From contig JBFMCE010000064.1 of NCBI GenBank assembly GCA_040754655.1, positions 1 to 23,317 on the forward strand: a DNA stretch of 23,317 nt, given 5' to 3'. The position numbers were made by a program, and so were the translations under genes. Position 1 is the first letter of the stretch, and each line of letters starts with the position of its first letter. This document shows positions 20,360 to 23,317 of this stretch, in pieces. Under the pieces are notes generated by a model, which was not told where the DNA came from, searched no databases, and saw nothing but the letters and a program-made list of their open reading frames with translations. The stretch comes from Bdellovibrionota bacterium. GTDB taxonomy: Bacteria > Bdellovibrionota > UBA1018 > UBA923.

Positions 20360-23317
20360 TTGACGGAAACGATCGGGAACTGGGCGACAAGCGCACTTTT
20401 GGTGTGTGCGGTGTTTGGTTCTCTAAACGCCTATGCCGAAAACGACAGGCTTTGCGCGACTAAACCGAAGAACCAACTTCTCGCTCACGCCAGAATCCCG
20501 GATGAGAAACAACAAGAGTGGTTGAAGCAATACAGGGAAACGAAGAATCCAAAGTTTCTTCATCGTATTTTGGAAGCGAATATCCAGCTCATACAAATAC
20601 GAGCAAAACAAACTCGCAGGTGGGCCCGAGAACTGGATTTAGATGATCTTGTTGGCCAAGGCTCATTGCATGTGCTCGAGGTTCTTTCGATGCGAAAAGA
20701 CTCTATTGAACAGATCTCATACTTCTTATCGGATTCACTAAAACACCATTTCTTTGATTATGCCTCAGAGCAGCTTTCTAAAAGTTCCGGTGCGGGACGA
20801 CAACGCCTTTCAAAGGTCTCTCAACTCAGAAAAACCATCGCCGAATTCGAACTCCAAGGAAAAAAACCTACGGTGAACCAACTGGCAGCAAGGTTGGATC
20901 TCCGACCGAATGAAGTGCTCGACCTGATCGATCTCGCAAGGTCCCCCGTCGAGCTTGATGCTCCTATTTCTACACTAGATAAACGCACCAGGCGAGATGC
21001 CCATCACGACATCGTTTCTGCGAACCCACCTGAACCTGACTCCGAACCTATTCACGCAGAAAAGGTTGCCTGGGGCAGCGCTGTGCAAGACATCTTAGAT
21101 AGAAATGAACTCAATGGGAGGCCTCTCACTGAACTGCAACGAGCGATACTCACCGAAAGAATTTTTGTTGACGATGACCATTCTGCCCTACGACTCAGTG
21201 AAATTGCCGCCAAACAAGGTGTACCAAAAGATCGGGCGACTAAGACAGCCACTCGCCTACGAGCTCAAATAGTGCGGCACTTGCGCAACTCTGGACTTAA
21301 GCTCCCGAATGTCGCAAGCGCAGCACCAGTGAAAGTTCCAGGCGTACTTGGGTGGATAGAGAAAGCGCTTGAAGACGGAACTATTCTCAATCCGCCGCTT
21401 ACCGAGCGGGAAAGGATTCTCGTGACACGCCACATATTGGCGGATGAGCCTATGCTTTTGAAAGATCTCGCCACAGAACTCGGTCTGCACCCTGCGATAC
21501 TTGTCGACAACAAGAGCGTCTTACTTTTAAAATTCAAGAACCTTTTGGAGCAGAACGGGATTGTGGCGCCCAGAGACTTTGATATTGAATCCGCGGTGCA
21601 TTTTGAAGCGCGTTACCGAGACCCCCCTCTCAAAGAAATCGTGAATAGGATTCTATCAACAAATACAATTGACGACAGGGTCCTGTCTTCAACAGAAGGA
21701 CGCATCGTTCACAAACACATTCTTACGCCCGCACCGGTGCCATTGAGTCAAATTGCCACGGAACTAGGGAAAGCAGACGTTGACCTTGAGCGTACCAAAG
21801 CATTGCTCACCCTTGAGATCCAAAATGCGATCCGCAGAAGAGGCTTTTCATATTCAGATGGAAAAGCGGTAAGACCCAAACGCATTGCAATCGATGAAAC
21901 TCAAAAGAAAAGCTCGGGTGACTTGATCAGAGCCGCAATCGAACAAGAGCGACTTGGACAAGTCTCTCTGTCTAAAGTCGAAGTCGAACTACTCAAGCAG
22001 CGGATTTTTACAGATTCTCCAACAAAATTTAGCGATCTTGAGAAAAAACTAGGCCAAGATCACTCAACTTTATCTTTCGTGGCAAGAAAGCTGCTTCTCA
22101 AGCTAGAGGGCCACCTTCTCGAGAACAGAGTTCATGAGCTTTCGAGCTTAGACATCAAGACCCTTGCCGCGTTCGAAGCAAGCAATCATCAAAGGCATGA
22201 TTTCACGAGCATTCTTGGCAAAATGCTCGAATCAAAAAAAATCGGAGCACGTTCTTTAAGCCCTCCGGAACTCTCAATCCTTCGAGACCGCATCGTCACC
22301 CGAAAACCTGTTGATGACGAGGTCTTGGCAAAGAGCTTAGGCTTTACGCCAAAACACATACGCAAAGTTGAAACGAAACTACGAGACGAAATTCAATCTT
22401 TTCTCAACCCCAGAAAACCTACAGAGCTCTTGCGAAAACTTATTCTAAACCCCAAACAAATTGAACTTGAGCTCAATGCTACAGAAATGGCTGTTTTTAT
22501 GAATTTGGTCGATATCGATCCTCGCTCCCCAAAAGAACTTGCCGAAAGGTTGGGTTACCTCGAATCCTCAGTGTATCATGCTAAAAAAAAGCTTTTATCA
22601 AAACTCAGGAGCTACCTTGAGAGTCACGGGGCCGTCCTTGACCCATCTGCTGATCTTGAAGAAGTCATACATTATCACGTGATCTTCAACTCACCCGACC
22701 ATGAAGCTACAATCAATACGGCCATCAAAAATCGTGTTCTTAATGGAAAACCCCTCGACGAGGTTGATTTTACGATCTTAAAAACAAAAATTTTTACTCC
22801 AGTTCCTGTTGATTACAAGGAACTAGTTCGCGAGACGGGACTTTCTAACACCGTACTTTCCGATCGGGAAGCCTTACTGCGGGCACGTGTTACAAATCAC
22901 TTTTATCGAGAGAGTGTGTCTTCGGCCAAAAAAACGCGTGACCCCTTAGGCCCCTCAATCCGGTCAAGAATATCTCGAGCACTCGAGACAGGAACTCTCG
23001 GAGACGAACCTCTAACTGCGGTCGAAAAAGCAATACTTGAAGATAGGCTATTCACGGATAAGCCTAAACCGCTCAGTGAGTTGCTCGTTAAAGCCGGCCA
23101 AAAAAGAAAAGAAGCTTTTGCCAAAGAGGAGCCCTTTTTACTTGAGAAGGTCGAAACCTGGCTATTTGAGCAAGGAATCCCGCCCGAAAAACTTTATAAC
23201 ACCGTATCATTCCTCGAATTTGAGTACCTCAATCAATATGACAAAGACATCGCAACTTTCCTTACTCGAGCAGTAGCGACACAAGAGCTTGACGGGCACC
23301 CTCTAAATGAAAGATTA
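20360..23317 (+). CDS. Giant sigma70-like protein with tandem region-4 HTH repeats (3' partial, at least 986 aa); absent from the ORF track
   Basis: Manual translation of + frame 2 has no stop from 20231 to the window end. Probable TTG start at 20360. Region 2.1/2.2-like [14 protein letters not shown]...[10 protein letters not shown]; region 3-like [15 protein letters not shown]...SPVELDAPI; then repeated L(T/S/N/D)xxE/Q/D...I/L...P...L...G units. Confidence 0.85.
21083..23317 (+). repeat. Protein-level tandem array of at least 9 sigma region-4-like units (72-97 aa period)
   Basis: Anchor Leu codons at 21125, 21398, 21683, 21968, 22256, 22472, 22754, 23012, 23303 (LTELQ, LTERE, LSSTE, LSKVE, LSPPE, LNATE, LDEVD, LTAVE, LNERL). 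No obvious DNA-level identity. Confidence 0.8.

Follow-up and report, generated by a model that had tools for sequence, protein, structure and literature searches.

A putative eroded sigma70 descendant with tandem sigma4-like units behind a predicted signal peptide in a Bdellovibrionota genome

What does the last 3 kb of contig JBFMCE010000064.1 (Bdellovibrionota bacterium, assembly GCA_040754655.1) encode, and in which cell would its product act? The window, that is, the whole stretch of 23,317 nucleotides analyzed here, is this entire contig (C64), which belongs to a 3.78 Mb genome of 196 contigs that is 90% complete (G000). A plus-strand reading frame runs without a stop from position 20231 to the contig end; from a TTG at 20360 it comprises at least 986 codons, and each of the remaining five frames has 28–65 stops across 20360–23317. 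Judged by its sequence relationships, the product appears to be an eroded sigma70 descendant with an RpoH-type domain 4, which is present in eight complete copies and the start of a ninth and is preceded by a predicted signal peptide. It might act on the RNA polymerase (RNAP) of another bacterium. An earlier note on this DNA had described the last ~3 kb as a single open frame, which is borne out to the last base; the note also took the gene to be hidden, which is not so for gene callers, as it is present in the public protein set from residue 18 onward (P0001, 969 amino acids). The gene has the following features.

20360–23317, plus strand: open reading frame (ORF) of at least 986 amino acids, TTG start, 3' end lost at the contig end
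20360–20437, plus strand: predicted Sec-type signal peptide (amino acids 1–26), with a hydrophobic core and an A-x-A site and without a basic n-region
20411, plus strand: alternative GTG start, giving 969 amino acids without the signal peptide; the start in the public gene call
20453–20455, plus strand: Cys32, six residues past the predicted cleavage and the sole cysteine in 960 mature residues
20495–20764, plus strand: sigma2-like domain with a 1.2-like helix; regions 2.1 and 2.2 recognizable, 2.3–2.4 eroded, no Pfam r2 match
20822–21028, plus strand: sigma3 domain (amino acids 155–223), Pfam Sigma70_r3; acidic sigma-finger residues lost
21059–21307, plus strand: sigma4-like unit 1, domain 4 of the core itself, three basic residues in its recognition helix
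21332–21577, plus strand: sigma4-like unit 2, the modeled unit
21614–21862, plus strand: sigma4-like unit 3, nearest to unit 7
21899–22147, plus strand: sigma4-like unit 4, nearest to unit 8
22187–22426, plus strand: sigma4-like unit 5, best RpoH score (20.6 bits)
22406–22648, plus strand: sigma4-like unit 6, most divergent, with a short linker
22685–22933, plus strand: sigma4-like unit 7
22949–23188, plus strand: sigma4-like unit 8
23240–23317, plus strand: unit 9, start only, cut at the contig end

The count of nine takes in the core's own sigma4 domain (unit 1) and the begun ninth. The eight complete units, anchored at amino acids 255, 346, 441, 536, 632, 704, 798, and 884 (spacing 72–95 residues), are homologous to one another, with leave-one-out hidden Markov model scores of 13.5–55 bits and pairwise z-scores mostly above 4. 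The final 26 amino acids resemble the starts of the units (score 188; shuffles averaged 124, and 1 of 2000 scored as high). Sequence identity to unit 2 ranges from 18 to 28%. The closest pairs are units 3 and 7 and units 4 and 8, which suggests block duplication within the array; the pairing of units 1 and 5 is weak.

A structural model predicted from the eight units only (predicted local distance difference test, pLDDT, 88) has four helices, the first of which is followed by a short hairpin. This added hairpin of ~7 residues is common to all units. In a structural search, the top 12 of 48,161 chains were all sigma4 domains (Z 6.9–7.9, middling values), including domain 4 of Escherichia coli sigma32 (PDB 8hkc_E; Z 7.9, root-mean-square deviation 2.2 Å, 68 residues), which was tied with other sigma4 domains. 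The top Foldseek rows for the unit model were likewise sigmas, none reaching E 0.001. A RuvB winged-helix match (E 0.0056) and MarR/TrmB Pfam rows (under cut-off) were dropped because the structural search favors sigma4.

The units are of the RpoH type. A repeat-only profile matches 10 of 10 RpoH proteins and none of nine RpoD or nine FliA proteins, and all eight units score higher on the RpoH profile. The hydrophobic core of the domain is kept, and the RpoH recognition-helix motif, found in 9 of 10 RpoH proteins, occurs in none of the eight units. In units 2, 4, and 6 the recognition helix starts without any basic residue, and units 1 and 5 retain three basic residues in the helix. While the array is mildly basic overall (isoelectric point, pI, 8.8), the helix-turn-helix (HTH) segments have a pI of ~8 or less in five of the eight units, four of these at or below 6.1.

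Might such an array be an artefact of assembly, or its frame non-coding? The gene does lie at a contig end, and its composition is unusual but within range (codon preference at the 8th percentile and third-position GC, 0.44, at the 4th percentile of 1762 genes of G000). No close full-length relative was found either: 8000 scored candidates contained the query only, and 7998 longer candidates contained none, which is weak evidence. Against an artefact, the longest direct DNA repeat in the gene is 16 nt, so the repeats did not arise through expansion during assembly; despite their ancient divergence, the units give a model of pLDDT 88; and unit order and linker motifs are common to independent proteins. 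We regard this explanation as extremely improbable. Extension to a stop codon, which the earlier note had proposed, did not succeed: among the contigs of G000, none overlaps the end of C64 and none holds further units, and in a metagenome scan for an extension of the gene 0 of 388 pattern matches was confirmed. As the contig ends inside the gene and no contig overlaps it, the C-terminus is missing.

Ahead of the array lies the sigma core. Pfam Sigma70_r3 (PF04539) matches amino acids 155–223 with 33.9 bits (cut-off 25.3); in the same scan of the ORF, Sigma70_r2 gave no match and Sigma70_r4 10.9 bits only. Bacillus subtilis SigA is collinear with residues ~60–308 (E 1.7e-5), an alignment that takes in regions 2.1–2.4. 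Fifteen NCBIfam sigma70 models matched, all far under their cut-offs except that of the superfamily TIGR02937 (33 vs 42.9 bits); the RpoH model TIGR02392 scored 14.1 bits against a cut-off of 323.1. On an RpoH profile the core reaches 32.6 bits, compared with 14.7 on RpoD and 12.2 on FliA, and region 3 by itself cannot tell RpoH (16.7 bits) from RpoD (15.2 bits). Regions 2.1, 2.2, and 3 are recognizable in alignment with the RpoD, RpoH, and FliA of G000 itself. In region 2.3 a single aromatic pair is left, Tyr-Phe opposite the Trp-Trp of the genome's own RpoD and RpoH, and the preceding loop is unalignable. The RpoH box, a motif that follows region 2.4 in the genome's own RpoH, is lost from the query. 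The query sits, in a 48-row tree, on a long branch (3.6 changes per site) outside the supported sets, with RpoH and RpoD nearest at near-equal distance. A single-sequence model of the core is poor (pLDDT 52) and its Foldseek rows, all sigmas with none at E 0.001, carry little weight; by ESM Atlas features, the whole protein lies near divergent phage and bacterial sigmas (score 0.96).

The sigma2.2 and sigma4 regions are the two main interfaces for binding core RNAP, regions 2.3–2.4 capture the −10 element, and sigma4 binds the −35 element and also contacts activators (PMC4598750). With the residues for −10 melting and the −35 recognition helix both eroded, the product is probably not a working sigma. 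The earlier note had proposed an RpoH-like sigma with an amplified domain 4. The quoted motifs are all present, with r3 over its cut-off and SigA collinear, and the eight units with a begun ninth were recovered; sigma70 ancestry, an RpoH-type domain 4, and its amplification also stand, as does the sigma4-like fold of the repeats in structure prediction and structural search. RpoH-like function is not supported, given the TIGR02392 score and the erosion of region 2.3 and of all eight recognition helices; the tandem HTH domains hold as a fold and not as a recognition-helix motif, and the check with Pfam is borne out for r3 and not for r2 or r4. Absent from that note are the apparent signal peptide and cysteine leader, the recurrence of the architecture with 2–6 sigma4 units, and the erosion of DNA-facing residues.

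The same residues bear on whether the protein could be exported as a productive factor, which would form a holoenzyme in the target cell and use its array to read extended upstream DNA, in the manner of TAL effectors, thereby redirecting prey RNAP. The complete sigma2-3-4 order would fit, as would a recognition helix that differs in each unit on a conserved core fold, the mildly basic array with its three basic helix residues in units 1 and 5, and the near-intact 2.3 and 4.2 motifs found in some single-sigma4 proteins of the class described below. Region 2.3 is eroded, however, units 2, 4, and 6 lack the basic helix residues, five of the eight HTH segments have a pI of ~8 or less, and the low identity among units (~20–28%) is unlike that of modular DNA-reading repeats. 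We consider a productive factor very unlikely.

The second question, that of the cell in which the product would act, turns on the N-terminus. The predicted signal peptide has a 9-residue hydropathy of 2.7 and a predicted cleavage after residue 26 (by our own heuristic). The occurrence of at most one cysteine in the mature protein has a Poisson p of 0.003, with the cysteine rate of the signal-peptide-like proteins of G000 as background. We defined a leader class in this analysis as a signal peptide plus a cysteine within ~25 residues of cleavage; the cysteine of the query is at +6. The TTG at 20360 has a Shine-Dalgarno sequence of four bases at 12 nt, and 413 of 784 signal-anchored starts in G000 have none at all. 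This start is favored tentatively, relatives with a hydrophobic leader and cysteine tipping the balance. No sigma70-type promoter was found in the sequence upstream of the ORF.

Other sigmas appear to carry such leaders as well. Sigma70 genes were listed in 30 genomes, which are kin and not independent, five through r4 and 25 through r2, and signal peptides were called by the heuristic. In the 25 genomes, it flagged 20 rows among 140 distinct sigma ORFs (one match lacked a locus), of which 10 were kept; these lie in 5 of the 25 genomes (G005, G014, G015, G020, and G165), and 9 of the 10 have a leader cysteine. The other five genomes hold two in G006, seven in G016, and two in G000, with none seen in G001 or G070, for a total of ~21 in 8 of 30 genomes. 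G016 was picked after a match, and its seven include four in tandem (L075 471–5311) and two in tandem (loci L075, L076, and L077). Besides the query, G000 encodes a 326-amino acid signal-peptide sigma70 (C103:3576–4553, plus strand; L102) with r2 and r4 over the Pfam cut-offs and a clear CxxLL, whose upstream neighbor likewise carries the leader. Both r2 and r4 exceed the cut-offs in seven of the nine signal-peptide sigmas scanned. These other proteins mostly have classical basic-hydrophobic-AxA signals starting from ATG. Domain 4 is repeated in two of them (three units in G015 C37, two in G014 C12), and members of the extracytoplasmic function (ECF) type exist.

Leader-bearing rows of the 48-row tree are long-branched (most 1.2–5.6) and fall beside RpoD, beside RpoH, or unplaced. 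In this tree P0031 is labeled as having a signal peptide and its record has none, and the rows do not include G016 C35a, P0003, P0004, or the ECF-type members. Monophyly of the leader-bearing sigmas was rejected (approximately unbiased test, p-AU 7e-5, with the caveats of long branches and one mislabeled row); the leader therefore appears to have been joined to sigmas more than once.

Two further observations concern sigma genes in related genomes. The 72%-complete genome G008 has two RpoD-like genes (C104 and C167; L124 and L126), possibly through contamination. In G401, of the same phylum, RpoH-type and FliA genes lie ~3 kb apart, an arrangement comparable to that of bd3314 and bd3318 as given in the available part of PMC12622784 and in keeping with the assignment to Bdellovibrionota.

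Sigmas are not the only proteins behind this leader. In G000, a cysteine in the context C-x-x-hydrophobic-hydrophobic follows 53 of 815 predicted signal peptides, that of the C103 sigma included, compared with 19, 9, and 8 in downstream control windows. Forty leader-Cys proteins were picked by eye, 13 with a Pfam match and 27 without. Nine of the 13 are of cytoplasmic type: a Fic protein, a MoxR AAA protein and its neighboring vWA protein, a sigma54 activator with an HTH, two S-adenosylmethionine (SAM) methyltransferases, an HD nucleotidase, a C1B-like peptidase, and the C103 sigma. Among 40 random Cys-free signal-peptide proteins taken as a control, 29 have a Pfam match, mostly to envelope families, and at most five are of cytoplasmic type, three of them apparent false signal calls. 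The difference (9/13 vs 5/29; Fisher p 0.003) depends on a sorting by our own judgment and on sets that were not drawn alike. Domains that depend on ATP, SAM, or DNA have no substrate in the periplasm, and for this reason the leader cargo most plausibly ends up in the cytoplasm of another cell, that is, the prey. Bdellovibrionota are termed obligate predators in the part of PMC8067016 available, B. bacteriovorus exports proteins through Sec signals according to the portion of PMC12622784 at hand, and the accessible part of a preprint (10.64898/2026.03.19.712371) describes large proteins being transferred to the cytoplasm of a partner bacterium, a precedent for delivery though not of sigmas. 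G000 has four secretins. A search for an ATP/ADP translocase gave no match anywhere, controls included, and is uninformative.

Several of these proteins deserve mention in their own right. The sigma54-dependent activator (C42:17482–18888, plus strand; L092) has an AAA domain (226 bits), a Fis-type HTH, a signal peptide, and CxxLL, and is a second transcription protein that looks exported. The adjoining MoxR AAA and vWA genes (C20:10247–15534, minus strand; L082 and L112) both have the leader and apparently encode an exported chaperone pair. The Fic-domain protein (C43:8113–10791, minus strand; L081) is 893 amino acids long and has the leader. At C20:22530–24026 (minus strand; L312), a DnaJ domain lies right behind a convincing signal peptide, with no leader cysteine.

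Relatives of the array were sought with the repeat profile among 1.84 billion representatives; 214 proteins matched at E 0.001, and the best 150 of these were considered. The nearest arrays among the matches listed are P0004 (E 5e-18) and P0003 (E 1e-9), with three units each in matching order, which align with units 5–7 including the linker motifs. Each has a hydrophobic segment and an early cysteine at its N-terminus, and the start of P0004 looks clipped. P0016, P0020, and P0078 combine a signal-like start, a cysteine, and a sigma2 region with three, six, and five units, respectively. In other proteins overall, the architecture recurs with 2–6 sigma4 units. Another group (P0002, P0006–P0008, P0015, P0025, P0026, P0028, P0029, P0033, and P0140), most of whose members look mutually related, has 380–650 amino acids and 3–6 sigma4-like units and lacks both signal peptide and sigma2; arrays therefore do not require export.

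In the phylum, a search of 61 genomes (the source genome and 60 relatives) returned ordinary sigmas only. The wider search for the architecture among Bdellovibrionota, suggested when the gene was first noticed, gave a partial answer: at E 1e-5 the repeat profile matches 238 of 401 genomes (the source included), with one match each except in G000 and G070 (the latter has a second match), and under-reports diverged arrays, because it missed the three-unit protein of G015. Scanning genomes with P0020/P0078 and with P0003 gave no match, and P0004 was the sole protein recovered in a profile search.

Other matches place sigma4-like units on different heads. P0005, P0009, P0012, and P0041 form a family of 730–800 amino acids with a signal peptide and cysteine, an unannotated head, and 4–5 sigma4-like units; the start of P0009 looks clipped. 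P0027 (3340 amino acids) and P0142 (2424 amino acids) are giant proteins with several enzyme domains, in which sigma4 repeats accompany oxidase, peptidase, ATP-grasp, and transporter domains, and P0013 has a methyltransferase head carrying a sigma4 array.

Might the sigma4 fold then have been co-opted in an exported protein as a structural repeat (a spacer, scaffold, or adhesin-like stalk) that leads to an unseen C-terminal domain, with the core a decaying relic? Arrays on unrelated heads such as P0013 and the giants P0027 and P0142 are in keeping with this, as are the long branch of the query, the loss of its DNA-facing residues, and the hairpin added in all units. Regions 2.1, 2.2, and 3 are still recognizable, however, and seven of the nine scanned signal-peptide sigmas keep r2 and r4, which would not be expected if exported sigma domains were inert. 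Structural co-option thus seems unlikely to us.

What we favor, tentatively and as possible without being probable, is that the protein is exported as a non-productive sigma70 decoy directed at prey RNAP. We read it so because the parts that face RNAP are kept, the parts that face DNA are lost, and the domain that binds the β-flap and activators is multiplied. The protein would be synthesized with a Sec signal peptide and leader cysteine as one of a set of cargo proteins, and following Sec export, a second step would deliver it into the cytoplasm of the prey or host bacterium. There, judging from the residues retained and lost, sigma2.1–2.2 and sigma3 would dock on the target core RNAP, which could not open a promoter for want of the melting residues of 2.3 and of a −35 recognition helix. 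The sigma4 folds, at least nine in number, could provide repeated binding surfaces for the β-flap, activators, or anti-sigma factors, making the array a multivalent sponge that would damp prey transcription.

A number of points weigh against export and action on prey. The start is ambiguous: the GTG at 20411 has a better-spaced Shine-Dalgarno sequence (four bases at 6 nt) and the support of the public gene call, and its use removes the signal. Only 45 nt separate the TTG from the ATG of the divergent tgt gene. Lys and Arg are absent from amino acids 1–26, as a basic residue is from the first eight amino acids in 9 of 56 members of the leader class, and the query is outside the 53 rows with C-x-x-hydrophobic-hydrophobic, the residues after Cys32 not fitting CxxLL. 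Among the 20 sigma rows flagged by the heuristic, nine were discarded on visual inspection as false starts upstream, and one was a duplicate. The leader-Cys set was hand-picked, its sorting into cytoplasm and envelope is subjective, and 4 of its 13 Pfam-matched members (GH15, S41 peptidase, FGE-sulfatase, and DUF3703) are not of cytoplasmic type. Many sigma4 arrays have no signal peptide, no route was found from the periplasm to the prey cytoplasm, the C-terminus of the protein is not in the assembly, and predation by the source organism is assumed from its phylum.

Some of these points would fit an internal regulator of the cell's own transcription, either begun at GTG 20411 or held in the membrane by its hydrophobic N-terminus, a tether that proteolysis would remove, as in Bacillus pro-sigmaK and pro-sigmaE. 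It would then be a sponge of the anti-anti-sigma kind or else an alternative sigma that has diverged strongly. The Shine-Dalgarno spacing, the public call, and the n-region without basic residues agree with it, as do signal-free sigma arrays (for example, P0047 and P0050) and the ESM Atlas proximity to divergent phage and bacterial sigmas. On the other hand, the other signal-peptide sigmas mostly have classical signals from ATG, the leader is common to the nearest relatives among the matches listed, the sole mature cysteine is at the leader-class position, and unrelated enzymes are headed by the same leader. An internal regulator is, in our estimate, somewhat unlikely.

Beyond the decoy proposed for the query, a wider possibility, to which we give a little less than an even chance, is that the Bdellovibrionota of this order have repeatedly made their own RpoH-, RpoD-, and ECF-like sigmas into exported effectors, through a signal peptide and Cys leader that is shared with enzymes dependent on ATP, SAM, or DNA. 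Such a habit would imply a two-step route, so far undescribed, into the prey cytoplasm and a phage-like takeover of prey RNAP by a predatory cell. The query would be the extreme case, its domain 4 at least ninefold, trapping RNAP multivalently or reading DNA in a modular way.

The neighboring genes are as follows.

19181–20314, minus strand: tgt (NCBIfam), probable ATG at 20314; divergent neighbor, not functionally linked
Gene row headed by tgt: tgt-yajC-secD-secF-recJ; the other four genes were named by recognition of their translations

The slot upstream of tgt (20315–20359 in the window; L264–L268) is a variable site, where the gene differs from one to the next of five family relatives; no synteny for the array gene was seen among these five at that slot. 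The window also encodes orphan signal-peptide proteins at 10909–12864 (minus strand) and 13–1074 (plus strand), with no NCBIfam match, the former fitting the leader-Cys motif with its cysteine at +23.

A literature search of titles and abstract openings, with most subscription journals outside its scope, found no description of signal-peptide sigmas or sigma4 arrays, and phrases for secreted, exported, effector, or translocated sigma factors had 0 occurrences in the papers listed by one part of that search. In the main text of a preprint on giant genes (10.1101/2023.11.21.568195), so far as it is available, transcription, DNA binding, and helix-turn-helix have 0 occurrences. Novelty rests on the recurring leader-bearing sigmas and is smaller if the leader is a tether or the start is wrong. 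In the prevailing view, a sigma acts only in the cell that produces it and carries one domain 4. If the proposal is true, one bacterium could jam or redirect the RNAP of another, and a delivery route into the prey cytoplasm would be marked by a recognizable leader. Were the leader a membrane tether only, the sigma architecture would still be undescribed, with a narrower interest.

Among known systems, RpoH (sigma32) and the group 3 sigma70 proteins share the sigma2-3-4 order with the query, whose unit superposes on 8hkc_E. Unlike RpoH, the query has at least nine domain-4 copies with a hairpin, an eroded region 2.3 and eroded recognition helices, and a predicted signal peptide. The norm in the sigma70 family is one sigma4 per chain, compared with eight complete and a ninth begun here. 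Bacillus pro-sigmaK and pro-sigmaE are members of the sigma70 family whose hydrophobic N-terminal extension is removed by cleavage; these pro-sequences tether the sigma on the cytoplasmic side and release it into the same cell. In contrast, the leaders described here have an AxA site like that of peptidase I and a cysteine, and are found on unrelated enzymes as well. Xanthomonas TAL effectors are delivered by type III secretion, have near-identical 34-amino acid repeats, and act on eukaryotic targets. The likeness to these lies in a protein that would be exported, has tandem helical repeats, and would be aimed at the transcription of another cell; we claim no homology, and DNA reading is doubtful in the query. 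Sigma mimicry is the mechanism of PhyR. In PhyR-type mimics of the alphaproteobacterial general stress response, a sigma-like fold serves for protein binding and not for promoter opening (PMC4551977 and PMC4814048, in their available parts). By analogy, the query may work like such a mimic; whereas PhyR carries one ECF-like domain attached to a receiver and works in the cytoplasm of the cell that makes it, the query has a group-3-type core, an arrayed domain 4, and a predicted export leader.

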